From an uncultured Clostridia bacterium (lineage in GTDB: Bacteria > Bacillota > Clostridia > TANB77 > CAG-508), in the NCBI GenBank assembly GCA_946529215.1, contig CAMMZC010000003.1, forward strand, positions 3,976 through 67,975: a stretch of 64,000 bases of DNA, given 5' to 3'. The number at the start of each line of letters is the position of its first letter. The first letter of the stretch is position 1. Positions 3,026 to 27,195 of the stretch are shown here, in pieces. Below the pieces are notes generated by a model. That model saw only the letters and a list, made by a program, of their open reading frames with translations. It was not told the origin of the DNA and made no database searches. The position numbers and the translations under genes were made by a program.

Positions 3026-4108
3026 TTAAATAAATTTTCTTGGAACCCTATCTGAAATAGTACACATAATTTCATAATTTATAGTATTACATTTATCTGC
3101 AAGTTGCTCAAGAGTAATATTTTCGTTATCCCAGATTATTACATCATCACCTAATTTTACATTATCTATTTCTGTAACATCTGCCATAAAACTGTCCATA
3201 CAAACCTTTCCTATAATAGGTGCTTTTTTGCCATTAATTAAAACTTTCCATCCATTTGAAAAATCTCTTCTAAAGCCATCTGCATAACCAATTGGAATTG
3301 TTGCAACTTTTGTTTCTTTTTCTGTTATAAAGCTTCTTCCATAACCAATACTTGTTCCTTTTTCTACAGTTTTTAGAAATGTAATCTTAGACTTTAAACT
3401 TGCAATTGGTTTTAGATTTATTTTTTCAAAAGTATTTTCTGCACCTGCATATCCATATAGAATTATCCCAGGTCTTACAAGATTAAAATGAGCTTCAGGA
3501 TAATTAAGTAAAGCATTTGATGCTGCTGCATGTATATATTTTATATCTCCTAAAATTTCTTTAGCCTTTTGAACTGCAATTTTAAAAGATTTTAATTGAT
3601 GCATAGAATACTCATCATCTACATCTGCTGCAGAAAAATGTGTGTAAATTCCTTCAACTTTAATATTTGAGCCTAAACTCTTTATGTATTGTTCAATTTT
3701 GTATGGATGAACTCCTGTTCTTCCCATTCCTGTTCCAACTTCAACATGGACTATAACGTTTTTGCCTGTTTCTGCCAATTTCTCCGCAAATTCGTAAGAA
3801 CTTATTCCAACAACTATATTATATTGGATTATTTTTTCTATTTCACTTTCATAAGGTTGATTTAATACGAATATTTCTTTTTCATATCCTATGTTTCTTA
3901 AATTTACAGCTTCATCTACATTTGCAACTGCCACAATATTAAATTTGTTTAATACTTCTAGCCTTTTGTTAATATATGTTCCATATCCATTTGCCTTTAT
4001 AACAGGCATAAGCTGAACATTTTCTCCAACATATTTTTGAATTTGTTCAATATTAAACTCTAAATTTTTTAAATTTACTTCCATATATGTAGGTCTAGTG
4101 ATTTCCAT
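3026..4108 (-). CDS. alr: Alanine racemase
   Basis: 360 aa. N-terminal PLP-binding region (VIKANGYG...) and overall alanine racemase architecture. Confidence 0.88.
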   Translation of the reverse strand: MEITRPTYMEVNLKNLEFNIEQIQKYVGENVQLMPVIKANGYGTYINKRLEVLNKFNIVAVANVDEAVNLRNIGYEKEIFVLNQPYESEIEKIIQYNIVVGISSYEFAEKLAETGKNVIVHVEVGTGMGRTGVHPYKIEQYIKSLGSNIKVEGIYTHFSAADVDDEYSMHQLKSFKIAVQKAKEILGDIKYIHAAASNALLNYPEAHFNLVRPGIILYGYAGAENTFEKINLKPIASLKSKITFLKTVEKGTSIGYGRSFITEKETKVATIPIGYADGFRRDFSNGWKVLINGKKAPIIGKVCMDSFMADVTEIDNVKLGDDVIIWDNENITLEQLADKCNTINYEIMCTISDRVPRKFI

Positions 4109-16321: not shown

Positions 16322-16397
<76 letters not shown>

Positions 16398-16402
16398 AAT
16401 AG

Positions 16403-16440
16403 AAACCTTGAAAACTTACGTTTTCAAGGTTTTTTATTTA
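16403..16440 (+). terminator. Rho-independent terminator after tRNA-fMet
   Basis: Hairpin aaaccttgaaaa-cttacg-ttttcaaggttt, then TTTTATTT. Confidence 0.75.
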
Positions 16441-16499: not shown

Positions 16500-18575
16500 T
16501 TATTGATTTTTTAATTTTAATATGTTGATTGTTTCCATAGTTTCTTTAGACTTCTCGTTATCTTTGCCATATACTTTGCATTGTAATTTGTATAATTTTT
16601 CGTATAACTCTAGCGAATTATTATATTTTTTCATTTTTTTATAAATACTAGCTAAATTATTTAAATTCCTTAATGTATTTGGATGAGTTTTCCCTAATGT
16701 TTCTTCACTCTTTTTATATGCTTCTTTTCCAAATTTTATAGCATTATCATAATTTTCTATATCACTATAATAAGTTGCAAGATTGTTTAACGATGTTAAT
16801 GTGTTAGGATGAGAGTCTCCCAATATTTCCTTTAATTTATTATAAACTATTTCACCTAATTTTACAGCTTTATTATAATTTCCCGTATGATTATAATAAT
16901 AAGAAAGATTATTTAAGCTTCTAAATGTATCTGGATGCTCATATCCTAATGTCTCTTTTCTATTTTTGTATACCTTTTCTCCTAACCTTATTGCTTCTTT
17001 ATAATCTTTTTTATAATTATAATAAATTGCAAGTCTGTTTAAACTTGTTAATGTATTTGGATGAGTTTTGCCTAATGTTTCTTTTCTTTTTTTATACACA
17101 TCTTTTCCGAGTTTTATTGCCATATCATAATTTCCTATATTACTGTAACTGACAGCTAGATTATTTAAACTAGTTAATGTATCAATATGAGTTTCTCCTA
17201 AACTTTCTTCTCTTTTTCTATATACTTCTTCTCCAAGTTTTATTGCTATATCATACTTTCCAATATCATCATAACCTCTCGCTATATTATTTAAACTATC
17301 TAATGTATATAAATTATTCTCTCCTAATACTTCTTTTTGGATTTTATAGCATTCATTGTTTACTTCCAATGCTTTGTTATAATCACCTGTATTTCTATAA
17401 GCAACAGCCAATTTAGTTAAACTTATCAATGTATTTAAATGTTTTTCTCCTAATTCTTTTTTATCTTTTTCATATACCTTTTTTTGCCACTCTAAAGCTT
17501 TTTTATAATCTAATTTTGTTCCTTTACCTTCTTCATATATATATACAAGCTCTTTCATTGCTTCTTTACATTCAAGATTTCCTGATTGTTCAAGCAGTTT
17601 TATTCCTTTTTCTTTATTTACTTCAACATCAATGCCATTTAAATATGCTAATCCTATAAAGTATAAGTGTTTTGGATCATCATTTTCCCTCCATGCTTCA
17701 TTTATTAAATACTTTTTTAAAGATTCACTTAAAAGCTCTGTATCATTTACTTTAATCGGAACAGGTATTTCTTTATATTTTTTTTGTAATTCTTCTTTAC
17801 TTGTATCTACCGCTTCAATTGGAACTATATTTTTACATTCTTTTTTAGCATTTGGATATTCTATTTTTTCCACATAGTTTTCTTCATTTACTAGATTTGG
17901 CGTTACAACCATTGCAAATAATTTACTTTTCTTCAAAGCTTCCTCTATTGACTCATTAAAATCTTGCCCTGGCTTTAAAAACTCATCATACCAAATTGCA
18001 ATATCTCTGCAAAATTCATTTTCATGAATTAAATGCATTATGTTTTCAGCATGTTTTTTGTCTTTTTTTCTATAACTTAAAAATATATATGCATCAAAAG
18101 CTTCTTGAACCTGTTTTCTCAATTCATCACTTACTAATACTGATTCTATATATTCTTTTAATTTACTTTTATATTTTTCTTCTCCAACAACTAACTTACT
18201 TAATGCTTGAAGGTTTCCACATTTTTCGTTAAAGTAGCTATCTATATTTGGCTCCATCATTATTGGCAAAATTGGAATATGATTATCCATTGCATATTGA
18301 AATTCTACTACTCTTGCATCACATTCTTCTGATATAAATTTCCATGTTACAGGTATCACAAATAAGTTTATTTGGCTCAAGTCATCTATAATTTCTCTTG
18401 AATTAATATTTTTATCAGCTTTATAATAAATTACACAATTTCTTATATCTAGAATTTCTTCAGTTATCTCTTCAAAATATTTATCAAAATCATTTTGATA
18501 GCAACAAAAATATACTCTTGATTTATCTTTTAGTTCTTTTCCTCTTGTTTTATATTTTAACTTTATTTCTTCCAT
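16500..18575 (-). CDS. Tandem TIR-like domains + TPR (TPR_10/12-type) repeat protein
   Basis: 691 aa. Residues about 160-300 match the TIR pattern (YIFLSYRKKD...IAIWYDEFLKPGQDF...FAMVVTPNLVNE). Residues about 15-150 are a second TIR/DUF4062-like module (RVYFCCYQNDFDKYF...). The C-terminal half holds about 8 TPR repeats ending in SLNNLA..Y/ LGK.HPNTL. Confidence 0.7.
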   Translation of the reverse strand: MEEIKLKYKTRGKELKDKSRVYFCCYQNDFDKYFEEITEEILDIRNCVIYYKADKNINSREIIDDLSQINLFVIPVTWKFISEECDARVVEFQYAMDNHIPILPIMMEPNIDSYFNEKCGNLQALSKLVVGEEKYKSKLKEYIESVLVSDELRKQVQEAFDAYIFLSYRKKDKKHAENIMHLIHENEFCRDIAIWYDEFLKPGQDFNESIEEALKKSKLFAMVVTPNLVNEENYVEKIEYPNAKKECKNIVPIEAVDTSKEELQKKYKEIPVPIKVNDTELLSESLKKYLINEAWRENDDPKHLYFIGLAYLNGIDVEVNKEKGIKLLEQSGNLECKEAMKELVYIYEEGKGTKLDYKKALEWQKKVYEKDKKELGEKHLNTLISLTKLAVAYRNTGDYNKALEVNNECYKIQKEVLGENNLYTLDSLNNIARGYDDIGKYDIAIKLGEEVYRKREESLGETHIDTLTSLNNLAVSYSNIGNYDMAIKLGKDVYKKRKETLGKTHPNTLTSLNRLAIYYNYKKDYKEAIRLGEKVYKNRKETLGYEHPDTFRSLNNLSYYYNHTGNYNKAVKLGEIVYNKLKEILGDSHPNTLTSLNNLATYYSDIENYDNAIKFGKEAYKKSEETLGKTHPNTLRNLNNLASIYKKMKKYNNSLELYEKLYKLQCKVYGKDNEKSKETMETINILKLKNQ

Positions 18576-18647
18576 AACAATACTCCTATCATAAAAATTC
18601 TCTACTATTTTGTAAATGGTAAATTATTTAAAAAAATAACAATGTTA

Positions 18648-19232: not shown

Positions 19233-19543
19233 TGTTATCTCTTCCCTTCTTTATTCACCTTTAATATATTTTTGTATATCTTTAACTGCTTTTTTATTTC
19301 TTCTTATTTCTCTTGCTCTATTGATATCTTCCTTATACAACTCTTTGCATCTTATTTATTCTATCTATAATATCTCTTATTTCTTCTTGGTTATATTCTT
19401 TCATAAACTACTCCTACTCATTTTCAAAATACTGACTAAACTGATTTTTTAATTCGTTTAAATCATCAAAATCTATCACATCTTCTTTAATTTTACCATA
19501 CCTTATGCATAAATGGGCCATGTATATTTTATTACTTTTTTTA

Positions 19544-22500
19544 TTATTCATTTATTTTTCTTATAACTATTTCATCTTTCTCTTTAATAACAAATTCATT
19601 CATTTCTTCTTTATCAATAAATTTATAATAATATTCTCCTAAAGGTAAATTTCTTGCACCTGCTTGGCCATTTTCATTGGTAGTTATTGTTATAATCTCA
19701 TCTTTATTGCTATCAAAAATCCTTATTTTTAAACCTACCTTAGGTTTATTATTTTTATCTTTAACTTGTATTGCAAATCTCCCTTTATAACGCTCTACTT
19801 TTATAACTGGATAAAAAGTTCTATTTTCGTCATCAATAGTAACTCTATATGTTGTTTCATCCATTATATAATTTCCTGTAAGACTAATTAACTTAAATAA
19901 ATACACAAATAAATAGCCATGACGCAAAGTAACATATGCTTTACCATCTCCATCTGTTACTACTTCAGTTAAATAATGTCCTTCTTTATCATAAATATAG
20001 AATGTTCCACCTTGAATTGGGTTACTTGCATCATCAACTAATGTAATAACTAGTTGATTTCTAGGATATATCAATTTAAAATTTGTTACATCTGCACCGT
20101 TAACATATACATATTTTGACATAAGTTCTTTATCCTTGTTATATTTGTCAACTAATGCGATTCTATACATTCCAACAGGAACTTTATAGTAGCTAATTTT
20201 GGCATCAGATCCAACAAATGACTGTCCTAATTTATTATCTGCACTATCATAAAGATTTACTGCATATCCTATAAGTGCATCCTCATTTAAATCAACAAAT
20301 TTTGCTTGAATTTCTCCTAAATAGCCCAGGTTCTTATTTGGAACAAATTCGCTAATATTTTGCTTTTTAACATTTAAAGCTTTAGATGTTTCTTCATCTG
20401 TCAATTCTTTGGCTATTTTAATTAATTCATTTGAAGCAAGATTTTCTGAAATTTCAATTCCAATATCTTTTAAAATTTTTTTTCTTAATTCTATAGCATC
20501 TTTCAATTGTTTTGCTTTAATCATTTCTTGTAAGATTTTGAATTGAAATAACTCATAATCTCCGACATTGTATTTTTCAAACTTTATTTTCTTAAATATT
20601 GCTTGATATTCCACACATTTTTCGTAGTTTTTAATTGCGTCCTTTGGTTTATTATTTTTGCTTTCAACTTCAGCTAATTTAGCATATATTTCGCTTAAAA
20701 AATAATCTCGTATAGCTCTACCATAAATATTATTTTCACTTATAAATTCATTATTATTTTTCACATAAGAAATAGCGTTTTTATATGCACTTGTTGCTTT
20801 TTTAAAATTAGTTTCCTTTAAACTATTTTCAGCTACTTCGTAATATTTAGTTTTCAAATCTTCTATTAATTCGTTATATTTTTCTGTTTGTTTTTTGTAG
20901 TTTTCTATTGCTTGATTTTTTTTATTTATTAAATTTTCAATTTCTTTTTTTGAACTTGTATTGTCTGGTAAAATCACAACTTTATTATTAATAACATCTA
21001 TTTCATCATCATAAAGCAAAATTAAATTTTTATACAAACCATATGTCTTATATATTTCTTCTAATTTATTAAAAGAATCAAACATAACCAAATTATAAAA
21101 TATAGGTTTTTCAAAAAGATTCTCTTTAACATAACATAGAATTTCATTATAAATACCAACAATTTCACTATAATCTTTTTCTACAAAACCAATTTTGTTG
21201 AATTTGTAATTAGCATACTTATAATAAAGGTCTATCTTGATTTCTTGTAAATCATCAAATTTTATAGAAAATTGATGATATTTAAACCATGATTTAATTG
21301 CCTTAAAATAATTATCTACAATTTTATTAAATAAACCAATATTTGTAAAATACTTAAATATTCCATATGAACTTCTAATAATAGAATATACAGCCACATC
21401 ATTTTGATTATATTTATTATTGTTTAAAGTTTTGATTATATCCGAATATATAAATATTGCTTTGTTTAAATTCTTTTTTCCCTCTTTTGTTTTTTCATCA
21501 TCAAAAAATTTTTCAGCTTCACTACAAAGTAAGTCAGCTTTAGCTAAATCTATTTCGGATTTAATAACTGTTAAATCTCTATGATTTTCAATATTTAATT
21601 CTATCTCATAAATATTATATAAAGATTTAATAGTATTTTTTGCTTTTTCAAAGTCACCACTTAATTCATAAAACTTTGATAGCTTTATTGCTAAATTCAT
21701 TGAGTAATCTATATGATTATATTCAGCCCAATCTAAATATTTTTGTATTAATTCTGCAGCTTTGCAATAATCTTCTTGTTTATTACAAAATTCTGCAAAT
21801 ATTAAAAAGGTATCTCTTTGTAAATTGTTATCTTCTTCGACTTTTATTGCTCTTTCATATGAGGCATAGATTTCTTTAACTCTATCTGGATTATTAATAT
21901 CTAAATTATATGTTTCAGCTCTTGATATTAATTCTTGTACAAATTCAGATAATTTCTTTCTTCCACTCTCCTGCTCTACTTCTATATGTACAATATCATC
22001 ATTAATTTCTTCAATATTAAGTATTTCTTTAGCAGATTCTAAGTCACCTCTTTCTAAGCATTTATACGCAGCAATTTGTTTCTTTGTAAGATTATTTTTC
22101 CCCGCTTCTTTAGAAAACTTTTTACTAAAATCAAATATTTGATTTTCTAAATTTTGAATATCTCTTTTATATTTATAATATTTCTCTGTAATTTCATCTA
22201 ATTTATTTGCTTCTTCTTTTGTATATTTTGTTTTATCAGATGATTTTAATTCCAAATATTCATCTTCAATTTTTTCAAATTTTTCTTTTAATTCAATTAA
22301 CTGCTCATTCTTAAAAAACATCGGAATTTTATCTAATACTAATATTTCCTCGCCATCTATACAAATGCTTCCATCAATTATTTCAATTGTTACATTTGAT
22401 GTTTTCATGTCATCGATTTTATTATTAATTTCATATTTAATACGATAAATATCAATATATTCACCATAGTAATGTTGCAAATTATCTCCAACATATTTAA

Positions 22501-23341
22501 TAAACTCATCTGCTTTTTTAGTTCTCTCTTTTACATCTTTTCTAACAAATGGTCTTAAATCAAGACTCTCATTTTCAATAAAATATTTATATGCATTATC
22601 AAAGTCTTTATATATTTTTTCGTCAATGTCTTTACCAACTATTAAAAATAATCCTGAACAATCTTTCAGTTGTTTTTCTGTTAGAGAAGTTATATCTTCA
22701 TTAGTAATAAAATTAAAATATACACGATGCTTTTTATATTTATCATTTATGTTCCTAATAAAATTACTAATTGCATATTTATCATTTTCTATATCTTTAT
22801 TTCCTTCAAGAAAAATAAAGTTATATTTTTTTAATTCTTCTTTTTCTAAATCTTCTTCATCAATTTTTTCAATACTATTATTTATTATTTCTTTAACCTT
22901 ATTATATAATTCTTCTTCTTCATCATATTCTTTTATTTTATTTTTAAATCCACCATTTAATACATCATTACCAAGTTTTTCTCTAAATTTAGCTACTGAA
23001 TCATCAGCATCACATTTTTTAAAGAATATAAACCTTCTTATACCTTTAACTTCTTTAGATACATCATATTCTTCAACAGTATATTCTCCTGCTCTTTTCC
23101 CAATTAGCAATATCATAACATCAGATTCTCTTAATTTTTGATTATATTGCTCTTGTTTTCTGCCTTTTACCATAGAATTATCTTCAAATTCACATTCAAA
23201 CAAATTAATCCTAATACCTTTTTCTAATAAGTCATCTTGCATTCTTCTTACTAAGTCGCCAATTTTATTTCTTTCAGTTTCAAATTCATTAATAGAAGAA
23301 GCTAAAAATATTTTTATTTCATTTTTATTATAACTTGGCAT
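19544..23341 (-). CDS. Large cytoplasmic multi-domain protein: two DUF4062/TIR-like modules + coiled-coil/TPR + C-terminal Cna-B/carboxypeptidase-regulatory-like beta-sandwich repeats
   Basis: The N-terminus IKIFLASSINEFETERNKIGDL...SDVMILLIGKRAGE fits the DUF4062 pattern. A second similar module follows (YNFIFLEGNKD...CSGLFLIVGKDIDE). The middle has TPR-like helical repeats. The C-terminal about 250 aa has repeats like TLVDDASNPIQGGTFYIYDKEGHY and GLKIRIFDSNKDE. No signal peptide. Likely start is ATG at 23341 (RBS GAGGA); the ORF-track start at 23356 is GTG. Confidence 0.6.
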   Translation of the reverse strand: MPSYNKNEIKIFLASSINEFETERNKIGDLVRRMQDDLLEKGIRINLFECEFEDNSMVKGRKQEQYNQKLRESDVMILLIGKRAGEYTVEEYDVSKEVKGIRRFIFFKKCDADDSVAKFREKLGNDVLNGGFKNKIKEYDEEEELYNKVKEIINNSIEKIDEEDLEKEELKKYNFIFLEGNKDIENDKYAISNFIRNINDKYKKHRVYFNFITNEDITSLTEKQLKDCSGLFLIVGKDIDEKIYKDFDNAYKYFIENESLDLRPFVRKDVKERTKKADEFIKYVGDNLQHYYGEYIDIYRIKYEINNKIDDMKTSNVTIEIIDGSICIDGEEILVLDKIPMFFKNEQLIELKEKFEKIEDEYLELKSSDKTKYTKEEANKLDEITEKYYKYKRDIQNLENQIFDFSKKFSKEAGKNNLTKKQIAAYKCLERGDLESAKEILNIEEINDDIVHIEVEQESGRKKLSEFVQELISRAETYNLDINNPDRVKEIYASYERAIKVEEDNNLQRDTFLIFAEFCNKQEDYCKAAELIQKYLDWAEYNHIDYSMNLAIKLSKFYELSGDFEKAKNTIKSLYNIYEIELNIENHRDLTVIKSEIDLAKADLLCSEAEKFFDDEKTKEGKKNLNKAIFIYSDIIKTLNNNKYNQNDVAVYSIIRSSYGIFKYFTNIGLFNKIVDNYFKAIKSWFKYHQFSIKFDDLQEIKIDLYYKYANYKFNKIGFVEKDYSEIVGIYNEILCYVKENLFEKPIFYNLVMFDSFNKLEEIYKTYGLYKNLILLYDDEIDVINNKVVILPDNTSSKKEIENLINKKNQAIENYKKQTEKYNELIEDLKTKYYEVAENSLKETNFKKATSAYKNAISYVKNNNEFISENNIYGRAIRDYFLSEIYAKLAEVESKNNKPKDAIKNYEKCVEYQAIFKKIKFEKYNVGDYELFQFKILQEMIKAKQLKDAIELRKKILKDIGIEISENLASNELIKIAKELTDEETSKALNVKKQNISEFVPNKNLGYLGEIQAKFVDLNEDALIGYAVNLYDSADNKLGQSFVGSDAKISYYKVPVGMYRIALVDKYNKDKELMSKYVYVNGADVTNFKLIYPRNQLVITLVDDASNPIQGGTFYIYDKEGHYLTEVVTDGDGKAYVTLRHGYLFVYLFKLISLTGNYIMDETTYRVTIDDENRTFYPVIKVERYKGRFAIQVKDKNNKPKVGLKIRIFDSNKDEIITITTNENGQAGARNLPLGEYYYKFIDKEEMNEFVIKEKDEIVIRKINE

Positions 23342-23383
23342 TCTTATTTTCCTCACTTATCTTATTACTTTTTATATATTACC

Positions 23384-25288
23384 CTATTCTGTAAAATCAT
23401 TTAACATCATTTTTACTATATCGTAATCACTTGATTTTAAATCTTTATTAATTCCCATACTTTGTAATTGATAAGAAACATTATCTAATTCTTCAAAAGG
23501 CACAAGAGCTGGGTGTCTTCTTCCTAAATAATCTCTGTGATCATTTAATATAGGATAATATCTTCTTACATCATCAATATTGGCTTTTATATACCCTATT
23601 GTTCTCATGTAGGCATTCCATCTATCATGTTCATTTTTTGCAAGCATTTCTTTTAATTCTTCTGTATAAATTTCTCTAAACATTTTCAAATTTTCTTTTA
23701 GATTTTTAGAATATTTTTCTCCTAATACAGAATACAATTTATATTTTACATGAAGTGCACTTGCTCTTGATGAACGTTTATTATATTCATTTAAATAATA
23801 ATCTGCAGAACTTCCACGATATGCTTTATGTATTTTTTCTCCAATTTTCTCAATTTCAGAATCAACTATTTTATTATCAAAATACATATCTTTTACACTG
23901 CCAAAAGCATTTATATCATATGTTGTTTCTTTTTCATTAATAAGCTTGTTTACTTGTTCTTTTTTATATTCATTTTGAATCCAAATATTTATTATTGGCT
24001 TTCTCTCATAATTTCTAATAAATAATCTTCTTAAATCTATTGCTGTATCTAAATTTTTACTATCTGTCTCCATTGATACTAATATATAATTTATGTCATT
24101 TACCTGTTCTATAGCCTCTATTGCTTTTGGAGATTTTATATCTGCATTAACAAATGTAATATCATAATTATTTAAAATGTCAGGTGTTTCAATTTCAAAA
24201 TTTTTCTTAATTTCGTCTGCTTTTATATCAATTACTAATGCTTTAAATCTATAACCTATCATCATTCCACACCATAAAGCATCTTTTAAAAATTCTTTTC
24301 CTACTTGTCCACAACCAACAATAAGCAATGATATAACATTATCAATTGCTCCTTCATAAATTGGCTTTTTATCTAATAAATTGAAAATTGCTCTTTCTTT
24401 TTCATTTACAATTTCTACATTAACAAACTCTTTATCAGATAAATCTAATTTTATAAGTTCTTGTTCGATTTTATCTTCAACTTCTGCATCTACAACATCT
24501 TTATCTGATAATCCTAATTTTGTCAGTATTTTTTTTCTTTCTTCTAATTTTATTTTATTAATAATATCTCTATTTGCCGAGTCTAAAACTATTGGCGCTT
24601 CTTCAGTATTGTTTATAACATATACTTTAATCTTTTGGTTTTTGTATTTTTCCATAATTTCTAACGCATCATTAAGATTTTGTTCTTCATTTTCAGAAAT
24701 CATATATATAGTTATATTATTATCATAATTATTTAAATTAATTTCGCTCATTTTTTCGGAAAGCTTTATAGATTTAAAAGAATCTGTTTTACCATTTCTT
24801 TTATATTCTACATTAGTAAATATAACTGCATTATTATTGTTCACATAACCTTCTGCAATCATAACAGATTTCTCATTCATTTCTGAAAAAAAGTATAAAT
24901 TTTTATTTTTTAATCTCTTAATTTTAATACCTTTAAATAAATCGTTTAAAATAGCAATTAAAGTACTTACAGTAAAAAAAGGCAAAGCAATTAAAAAGAT
25001 ATTTATCCAAATAAAATATCCAATTCCAAAAGCACTATGTGTATTAATTTTTGATAAAACATCTATATCTTCGTTTAGTGTTATACTTTTTAATGCATAA
25101 TAAAATGTATTAGTTACTTTGATGGCGATATTACTATAATCTAAAAGTGGAAACACCAAAATTCCCAAACAAATAAGTCCTATTCCCATTATTATAAAAA
25201 ATCTATATTTAGTGTCTATTTTGTAATTTTTTAATAATACAAATCCAATTATTGTTACCACAATACTTAAACTAAAAGTTATTACCAT
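23384..25288 (-). CDS. Membrane protein with 2-3 N-terminal TM helices, Rossmann (TrkA_N/RCK-like) domain and C-terminal RyR domain
   Basis: 634 aa. N-terminal hydrophobic helices. VGCGQVGKEF is a GxGxxG motif. C-terminal ...HDRWNAYMRTIGY...RRHPALVPFEELD resembles the RyR (PF02026) pattern. The start codon abuts the stop of the upstream RyR gene. Confidence 0.55.
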   Translation of the reverse strand: MVITFSLSIVVTIIGFVLLKNYKIDTKYRFFIIMGIGLICLGILVFPLLDYSNIAIKVTNTFYYALKSITLNEDIDVLSKINTHSAFGIGYFIWINIFLIALPFFTVSTLIAILNDLFKGIKIKRLKNKNLYFFSEMNEKSVMIAEGYVNNNNAVIFTNVEYKRNGKTDSFKSIKLSEKMSEINLNNYDNNITIYMISENEEQNLNDALEIMEKYKNQKIKVYVINNTEEAPIVLDSANRDIINKIKLEERKKILTKLGLSDKDVVDAEVEDKIEQELIKLDLSDKEFVNVEIVNEKERAIFNLLDKKPIYEGAIDNVISLLIVGCGQVGKEFLKDALWCGMMIGYRFKALVIDIKADEIKKNFEIETPDILNNYDITFVNADIKSPKAIEAIEQVNDINYILVSMETDSKNLDTAIDLRRLFIRNYERKPIINIWIQNEYKKEQVNKLINEKETTYDINAFGSVKDMYFDNKIVDSEIEKIGEKIHKAYRGSSADYYLNEYNKRSSRASALHVKYKLYSVLGEKYSKNLKENLKMFREIYTEELKEMLAKNEHDRWNAYMRTIGYIKANIDDVRRYYPILNDHRDYLGRRHPALVPFEELDNVSYQLQSMGINKDLKSSDYDIVKMMLNDFTE

Positions 25289-25579
25289 TTATAGTTCCTC
25301 CTTAATTATTTTAAATCCAAGTTTTTGTATTAATTTCAATGTTTCAATAGCTGTATTTCTATCATATTCTTTTTCGCTTTCTGGCAAACTTTCATAAGAT
25401 ACTAAACAAGGTGTAGTTTTCAATTTATCATCTCGTACTATTCCATATTTCCAACCTTCATTTATTCTTCCTATAGCCCATACTTCATGTGTATTCTTAG
25501 CTAGTTTCTCCGCTAGTTTTAAAATTTCCTCACTTAAAATAACATCCTTTGTATCTACAGGTTTTGGTTGATAGTTCAT
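25289..25579 (-). CDS. RyR (ryanodine-receptor repeat) domain protein
   Basis: 96 aa. LAKNTHEVWAIGRINEGWKYGIVRDDKLKTTPCLVSYESLPESEKEYDRNTAIETLKLI matches the RyR-domain consensus (W...GW.YG..RD......P.LVPYE.L.E.EKE.DR). Confidence 0.7.
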   Translation of the reverse strand: MNYQPKPVDTKDVILSEEILKLAEKLAKNTHEVWAIGRINEGWKYGIVRDDKLKTTPCLVSYESLPESEKEYDRNTAIETLKLIQKLGFKIIKEEL

Positions 25580-26819: not shown

Positions 26820-26984
26820 ATCAGATCATTCCTCTCTTAAATACTTATAGTTGTTTAATTCTTCTTTTCTTAAACTAAATCATTATTTTAAATACACATA
26901 TATAATAGCACTTGAATAAAAAAAATGCAATCAAAACTTTAAAAATAAAAAGATTTTTATGTAATCAAATTTTTAAGCGCAAAA

Positions 26985-27195
26985 AATCCCCGCTGTAGCC
27001 GTAACTTGTGCCAAAATTTTTAACAACCTGCTCTCACAAACAGGTGGGTGCCTACCTAAATACTCATGGGCTTCTTACTACTATTATATTGCAAAAAGTG
27101 TAAGCTTGCACGCCATATTCAGAGTTCAGCCCCTCTTTAAACTTGTAGGTTCTAAAAATTCTGCAATACGCACTATGCAGGGGTTTTGTTTAATT
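26985..27195 (+). ncRNA. Candidate structured small RNA of unknown class (6S-like or other)
   Basis: About 210-bp non-coding segment with clearly higher GC than its flanks, lying between two minus-strand genes. The 5' end CCCCGCTGTAG can pair with the 3' end CTATGCAGGGG, followed by TTTT. Internal hairpins include GGTGGG-TG-CCTACC and CCTAC...GTAGG. GU pairs favour the plus strand. Confidence 0.3.

Follow-up and report, generated by a model that had tools for sequence, protein, structure and literature searches.

TIR NADases are an immune tool common to bacteria, plants and animals, and how they are switched on in proteins without an oligomerising nucleoside triphosphatase (NTPase) is poorly understood. 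This question is raised by a gene in a 64,000-nucleotide stretch of DNA from an uncultured Clostridia bacterium (GTDB lineage Bacteria; Bacillota; Clostridia; TANB77; CAG-508), namely positions 3,976 to 67,975 of the forward strand of contig CAMMZC010000003.1 (GenBank assembly GCA_946529215.1), hereafter the window. The gene is an uninterrupted open reading frame (ORF) at 16500..18575 on the minus strand, as are all parts of it described below, and encodes a 691-aa tandem-TIR/Sel1/tetratricopeptide repeat (TPR) protein. An initial annotation had read it as two N-terminal TIR-like modules, the first TIR- or DUF4062-like, fused without a STAND NTPase to about eight TPRs that would sense a ligand, with the TIR degrading NAD+ or making signalling nucleotides. 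How much of this layout holds, and could such a protein act alone?

Domain architecture and catalytic residues

The tandem-TIR/TPR protein is a STAND-less, direct fusion of a TIR pair to a Sel1/TPR alpha-solenoid. The second of the two TIRs (aa 156-296; 17688..18110) is canonical. Pfam placed TIR_2 (PF13676) at aa 164-257 with a score of 46.6 bits (gathering score 28; E 5.9e-12), and the module carries the motifs FLSYRKKD (betaA), WYDEFLKPGQ (BB-loop), LFAMVV (betaC), NYVEKIEYP (alphaC) and NIVPIE (betaD). Across 118 aligned members of the family, the residues F165-L-S-Y-R-K-K-D172, W195, D197, E198, N233, E239 and P241 were all invariant. When a profile of the TIR module was compared with PDB chains, matches included AbTIR (E 7e-5) and Caenorhabditis elegans TIR-1 (E 1e-3). 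In the TIR-1 alignment E239 fell on the Glu of WVHKE, which we take to be the catalytic Glu of that protein, equivalent to SARM1 E642, and the spacing between E239 and betaD (NIVPI), read from the aligned sequences, was the same as in SARM1 and TIR-1. E239 (codon 17859..17861), located in alphaC and conserved in 118/118 homologues, is thus the putative catalytic glutamate of an NADase-type TIR.

The first module (aa 1-155, including a helical linker at 132-155; 18111..18575) was cryptic by sequence, matching no Pfam family or PDB chain even when a 20-sequence profile was used. Modelled on its own with AlphaFold2 it nevertheless gave a confident TIR-type fold, with a predicted local confidence (pLDDT) of 91.9, a predicted template modelling score (pTM) of 0.87 and strands at aa 20-23, 48-52, 71-76 and 102-106. 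Profile-profile comparison showed it to be a homologue of the TIR_2 module in the same protein (hhalign probability 95.9%, E 6e-9), and for this reason we count it as a TIR, a diverged duplicate of its neighbour. The same alignment set E91 (codon 18303..18305) opposite E239. Among the 118 homologues the equivalent position was occupied by Asp in 107, Glu in 8, Asn in 2 and Ala in 1, and was thus acidic in 115/118. A joint model of aa 1-340 (117 homologues in the alignment; pLDDT 88.3, pTM 0.71) contained two alpha/beta modules, that of aa 156-296 having the flavodoxin-like TIR fold, with a long helix (aa 132-159) bridging the two.

DUF4062 was also considered as an identity for the N-terminal module and rejected. 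No member of a set of 20 gave any Pfam match at E up to 10 in this module, and comparison with the DUF4062 domain of a neighbouring gene product (the 1270-aa protein described below) returned an hhalign probability of 0.2%, indicating that the two are unrelated.

Two Sel1-like helical repeats (aa 297-374; 17454..17687) join the TIR pair to the TPR array; Pfam Sel1 was matched at aa 305-333 and the model placed helices at aa 301-313 and 321-333. The array itself (aa 375-668; 16572..17453) consists of seven units of exactly 42 aa each, all of the kinesin-light-chain type (TPR_12, E 3.4e-79; TPR_10, E 8.8e-65; seven stretches for each in Pfam), and is closed by a C-terminal cap helix of 23 aa (aa 669-691; 16500..16571 including the stop codon). 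In NCBIfam the sole match, a TPR similarity to FxSxx_TPR, fell below its cut-off. Between effector and repeats there was no NB-ARC, AAA or STAND match in Pfam and no Walker A motif, and neither a transmembrane (TM) segment nor a signal peptide was found anywhere in the 691 aa, consistent with a cytoplasmic protein. The proposed order of two TIR-like modules ahead of a TPR array without a STAND NTPase was thereby confirmed by Pfam, AlphaFold2 and hhalign together, as were the TIR fold and a conserved glutamate. The kinesin-light-chain character of the repeats also stood, their number being seven in place of about eight, and the DUF4062 label for the N-terminal module had to be given up in favour of TIR.

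Distribution, evolution and a possible role in phage defence

We further examined how widely this architecture occurs. Full-length relatives (35-58% identity, 95-100% coverage, ~700-1200 aa among the matches listed) are common in metagenome-assembled genomes (MAGs) of Clostridia and, where named at all, carry only the label 'tetratricopeptide repeat protein'; the identical 691-aa protein has also been deposited, on a 123-kb metagenome scaffold in ENA. A profile of the N-terminal module retrieved 2289 clusters (50% identity) at E up to 1e-3, of which 1350 were retained at E up to 1e-30, so that the family comprises no fewer than 1350 such clusters. These matches were nearly always N-terminal in proteins of 600-1400 aa and usually comprised two stretches per protein, the second of which we read as falling on the TIR. 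At least 532 species-representative genomes carried a relative. Among the matches listed, carriers were mostly Lachnospiraceae, Oscillospiraceae, Acutalibacteraceae and Ruminococcus from animal guts, with a few Erysipelotrichaceae, Bacilli, Spirochaetes and Muribaculaceae MAGs. In the sources searched, this very large gut-Clostridia clade is unnamed and uncharacterised.

The family is variable in size and copy number. Homologues ranged from 565 to >1400 aa with widely differing numbers of TPRs, and some genomes and loci held two copies. Locus L081 has two family genes in tandem (L081:5727-10166), and two MAGs have two copies on separate contigs (L015/L069 and L019/L042). One protein of 1903 aa (P0121) contains four stretches matching the N-module profile, the best at aa 936-1091, and has the appearance of two family proteins fused head to tail.

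Comparison of the window gene with its 87%- and 85%-identical orthologues (L006/L007) revealed uneven constraint along the protein. The ratio of non-synonymous to synonymous substitution rates (dN/dS) was 0.06-0.11 in the N-terminal module, 0.05-0.06 in the TIR and 0.06 in the Sel1 region, compared to 0.21 in the TPR array. The two TIR modules are therefore under strong purifying selection, and the array, evolving 3-4 times faster, is the fastest-changing part, which fits the expectation for a ligand-recognition surface attached to a constrained head. Nucleotide homology to the same two loci spanned just 16507-18597, that is, the ORF plus ~22 nt, and the flanks were unrelated. Because homology stops at the ORF borders, we conclude that the gene moves as a cassette of its own.

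In the best-supported reading, to which we give an even chance, the tandem-TIR/TPR protein is a self-contained STAND-less TIR NADase that senses and counters phage infection, with the TPRs as its sensor. In the resting cell, the TPR solenoid and inter-domain linker would hold the TIR pair inactive. A ligand from the phage, probably a structural protein that is abundant or oligomeric, would bind the concave face of the TPRs and so free or cluster the TIR modules, whose head-to-tail contacts would complete a composite active site around E239. NAD+ would then be cut to nicotinamide and ADP-ribose (ADPR) or cyclic ADPR (cADPR) isomers, and the resulting NAD+ depletion would abort the infection. 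The cryptic N-terminal TIR could act in cis, either as the built-in half of an asymmetric TIR dimer or as a lid with a regulatory or nucleotide-binding function. With Asp at the acidic position in 91% of homologues, it may or may not be catalytic itself. The sensor-effector interpretation of the initial annotation is thus supported once its DUF4062 alternative is set aside, with an NADase output that we infer.

Several observations weigh against this explanation. How the two TIRs are placed relative to each other is predicted with just moderate confidence, as judged from the pTM of the joint model, and a monomeric STAND-less protein has no evident means of oligomerising. No homologue was found by tblastn in phage and plasmid collections. 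PADLOC assigned the protein to no catalogued defence system, giving just weak TIR-domain matches (best 3e-6), to ThsB models. Among 145 flanking ORFs from 25 loci, PADLOC and Pfam identified mostly housekeeping functions, such as ABC transporters and methyltransferases. Conflict genes were scattered among them (AbiEi/AbiEii, CARF-PDDEXK/Card1, MzaA, IetA, DpdF, three other TIR_2 and three RyR proteins), and PADLOC matches to 'mad3' and 'mad8' landed on ABC transporters (one with ABC_tran/ABC_membrane; ABC_tran in 5 members). These neighbourhoods form no obvious defence island, and as the counts have no matched background we claim no enrichment. Finally, RyR-domain proteins or the membrane protein u634, described below, adjoin the gene in ~10% of loci, a hint that its role may lie in signalling and not purely in depletion.

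Neighbouring genes and alternative functions

The surroundings of the gene in the window are chromosomal and largely housekeeping. The order is pgi, L27, L21, tRNA-Met (+), the tandem-TIR/TPR gene, a rhomboid protease, a 1270-aa DUF4062/TPR/SpaA protein, u634 (634 aa), a 96-aa RyR protein, DUF1189, 6S RNA, SbcC/SbcD-like genes and NrdD. G+C content was 22-33% across the whole window, with no break in composition at the tandem-TIR/TPR gene. Composition thus lends no support to an island integrated at tRNA-Met, for which no search aimed at an integrase or repeats was made. Its ATG lies 7 nt downstream of a ribosome-binding site, AGGAG (18583..18587, minus strand), and ~65 nt past its stop codon a bidirectional, intrinsic-terminator-like hairpin (16401..16434) stands between the gene and the tRNA-Met and L21/L27 operon. 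A promoter scan returned 27 sites against 27.1 expected from shuffling, and the best match upstream of the gene ended too near the ribosome-binding site to convince. Upstream of the tRNA-Met (CAT) gene at 16322-16397 (+), which has the hairpin downstream of it, a sequence at 16259-16287 matches the promoter consensus TTGACA-17-TATAAT perfectly. Another perfect match to the consensus, on the minus strand (16207-16179), is directed at the L21/L27 operon. The 6S/SsrS RNA gene (26983-27186, minus strand; 76.2 bits in Rfam) is flanked by DUF1189 and the SbcC-like gene.

When the 799 ORFs of 80 family loci were clustered all against all, no operon partner proved to be conserved and no neighbour family occurred in more than 5 loci. 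RyR or u634 homologues were present in 8/80 loci (~10%). In five of these (L016, L052, L056, L050 and L075) they were co-directional with the tandem-TIR/TPR gene and abutted or overlapped it; in the window, u634 lies 5 kb away. A 1356-aa protein in L050 (L050:3487-7841) carries a protein kinase domain and a Card1-like endonuclease domain together with a u634-like middle region, and its gene is followed, in the same direction and with tight spacing, by those for a 93-aa RyR protein and the tandem-TIR/TPR family member.

The u634 protein (23384..25288, minus strand), a possible trans partner, has three TM segments at its N-terminus, a Rossmann/TrkA_N-like GxGxxG motif and, at its C-terminus, a RyR-like domain. 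It gave no confident Pfam match itself; one homologue, named 'NAD-binding protein', contains TrkA_N. GxGxxG is invariant in the u634 family, as are EHxRW, HP and D621 of the RyR-like domain. A stand-alone RyR-domain protein of 96 aa (25289..25579, minus strand) abuts it, and in other loci the position upstream of u634 is often taken by a small RyR protein or by an Abi_2-RyR fusion. The immediate partner of u634 in the window is the 1270-aa protein (19544..23356, minus strand), comprising DUF4062, TPR-like and SpaA/Ig-like regions. DUF4062 has lately been renamed the NIR NADase domain; its N-terminal match here scored 27.2 bits against a cut-off of 24.7, and the protein, encoded two genes away from the tandem-TIR/TPR gene, likewise fuses an effector to repeats with no NTPase. 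It was kept with u634 in the syntenic loci L090/L091 at 70% identity.

A TIR or DUF4062 sensor stood next to u634 in most loci examined (L016, L052, L056, L081, L088-L104, L109 and L112). Among independent u634 loci, the adjacent co-directional gene encoded a ~800-aa TIR_2/ThsB_TIR+WD40 protein in 11, a TIR_2+NB-ARC+TPR protein in L092 and a DUF4062 protein in L090, L091, L112 and the window. Because u634 directly adjoins such sensors, the arrangement suggests an undescribed Thoeris-like module in which a RyR-domain membrane protein is paired with a TIR or DUF4062 sensor. In L109, the u634 homologue (L109:609-2423) abuts an ORF whose product ends in a prokaryotic STING domain (L109:1-597; E 2.7e-16), so u634 may also pair with TIR-STING-type CBASS effectors. 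A Thoeris survey preprint, in its text and the supplements examined, makes no mention of RyR or TrkA effectors (10.64898/2025.12.03.692087).

These genes give substance to a second explanation, distinctly less probable than a self-contained NADase, in which the protein would be a sensor and signal synthase whose TIR makes mainly a cyclic ADPR-type messenger for a separately encoded effector, as in Thoeris. In the window, u634 would be the candidate effector, the small RyR protein a buffer or off-switch, and the tandem-TIR/TPR protein a second sensor beside the DUF4062 protein. The abutting or overlapping genes in five loci speak for this, as do the near-constant TIR or DUF4062 neighbour of u634 across independent loci and the direction of the PADLOC matches towards ThsB. 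Likewise, the invariant EHxRW, HP and D621 of u634 repeat the pattern of His, Trp, second His and Asp by which RyDEP, a phage protein with a RyR domain, contacts the ADPR product (PMC13232231), a correspondence of motif pattern and not of compared structures. However, ~90% of family loci have neither RyR/u634 within 8 kb nor any other conserved partner, and the cassette-like gene shares homology with its orthologues only within the ORF. Furthermore, u634 in the window adjoins the DUF4062 protein, the tandem-TIR/TPR gene lying beyond the rhomboid, and in L090 three extra genes (242 aa, 377 aa and sigma-70-like; L090:12778-15113) part the u634/DUF4062 module from the rhomboid. These are missing from the window, where a 125-nt remnant (19341-19464) is all of the interval 19233-19543 that still matches them, which indicates a local deletion or insertion polymorphism.

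Depletion and signalling are compatible readings, since TIR NADases commonly produce both ADPR and its cyclic isomers. A broader version of the second explanation, which we hold somewhat more doubtful again, would make the tandem-TIR/TPR protein one of several interchangeable sensors, alongside the TIR+WD40, TIR+NB-ARC+TPR and DUF4062+TPR+Ig proteins, whose cyclic-ADPR-type product is read by the RyR domain of u634, with small RyR proteins as host-encoded signal buffers. If true, bacteria would have a counterpart of the animal cADPR-ryanodine receptor link, in a Thoeris-like system as yet undescribed.

A non-immune role appears improbable. The TIRs could bind proteins or nucleotides while the TPRs recruit partners, forming a scaffold or regulator in, for example, NAD(P)/nucleotide homeostasis or stress signalling in gut Clostridia. 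Chromosomal, largely housekeeping neighbourhoods, the absence of phage or plasmid homologues by tblastn, the wide spread of the family within one ecological group and strong purifying selection on both TIR modules would all agree with such a role. Against it, the Glu and BB-loop residues of catalytic TIRs are strictly invariant, and the faster-evolving TPRs vary in number and length. The gene is also non-syntenic even between 87%-identical orthologues and is duplicated in some loci and genomes. Variable repeats, a cassette-like location and two copies are features of conflict genes and not of a housekeeping regulator. Bacterial TIR proteins of the Tcp/BtpA/TirS kind exist, and the concentration of the family in animal-gut bacteria would suit a similar host-directed or interbacterial effector (interfering with eukaryotic TLRs or poisoning target cells), which is very improbable here given the missing signal peptide and TM segment, the lack of any secretion-system or immunity gene conserved alongside in the 80 clustered loci, and a large intracellular-type TPR sensor array ill-suited to a delivered toxin. 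Both of these last explanations fit the data less well than the NADase or signalling readings.

Significance and comparison with known systems

The family is very abundant in animal-gut Clostridia, and half of its enzymatic head, the N-terminal TIR, is invisible to Pfam. A built-in TIR pair on a ligand-binding solenoid would offer a minimal model for the assembly and gating of TIR active sites, and the family could mark a major unrecognised determinant of phage resistance in gut commensals. In addition, the occurrence of u634 beside TIR/DUF4062 sensors opens to direct test the idea that RyR domains are host receptors of cADPR-type signals.

Of the systems already described, the closest to the tandem-TIR/TPR protein are E. 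coli TIR-II, Vulcan, SpbK, SARM1/TIR-1 and ThsB of Thoeris. SARM1 combines SAM-domain oligomerisation and an N-terminal solenoid that senses the NMN/NAD+ ratio with a single TIR; in contrast to SARM1 and TIR-1, the protein described here has two TIRs and no SAM domains. It resembles ThsB of Thoeris as a TIR that may make cADPR-type signals, consistent with its weak PADLOC matches and the minority of loci that abut u634. However, ThsB proteins have no fused TPR sensor, and no ThsA-type or other catalogued effector adjoins the tandem-TIR/TPR gene.

The logic of a single-protein TIR sensor-effector is backed by E. coli TIR-II, Vulcan and SpbK. SpbK of Bacillus subtilis is a small protein with one TIR, triggered by the YonE portal (PMC12847820), and differs from the tandem-TIR/TPR protein in having neither a second TIR nor a repeat array. 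Vulcan is a single gene combining DUF4062/NIR with HEAT repeats, in which a phage protein triggers NAD+ depletion and the catalytic Glu is required (10.64898/2026.09.04.749371). Vulcan and the tandem-TIR/TPR protein are each encoded by one gene and directly join, with no STAND NTPase, a TIR-like NADase fold at the N-terminus to an alpha-solenoid at the C-terminus; Vulcan has one DUF4062 effector domain and HEAT repeats, whereas the family described here has two TIR modules, the first unrelated to DUF4062, and TPRs. E. coli TIR-II unites TIR and TPR in one polypeptide that acts as a single-protein antiphage system dependent on TIR active-site residues; it is reported as the most widespread of the new TIR systems in its paper, and ~30% of TIR-II systems carry an ATPase (PMC11350192). 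The tandem-TIR/TPR protein likewise joins TIR and TPR in one protein without a partner, a match at the level of architecture. Unlike TIR-II, it has no ATPase and comes from gut Clostridia instead of Proteobacteria, and the cryptic TIR present in this family has no described counterpart in TIR-II. What distinguishes it from known single-protein TIR+TPR defence is therefore the cryptic second TIR, the lack of an ATPase, the very large gut-Clostridia clade that it forms and the optional association with a RyR-domain membrane protein.

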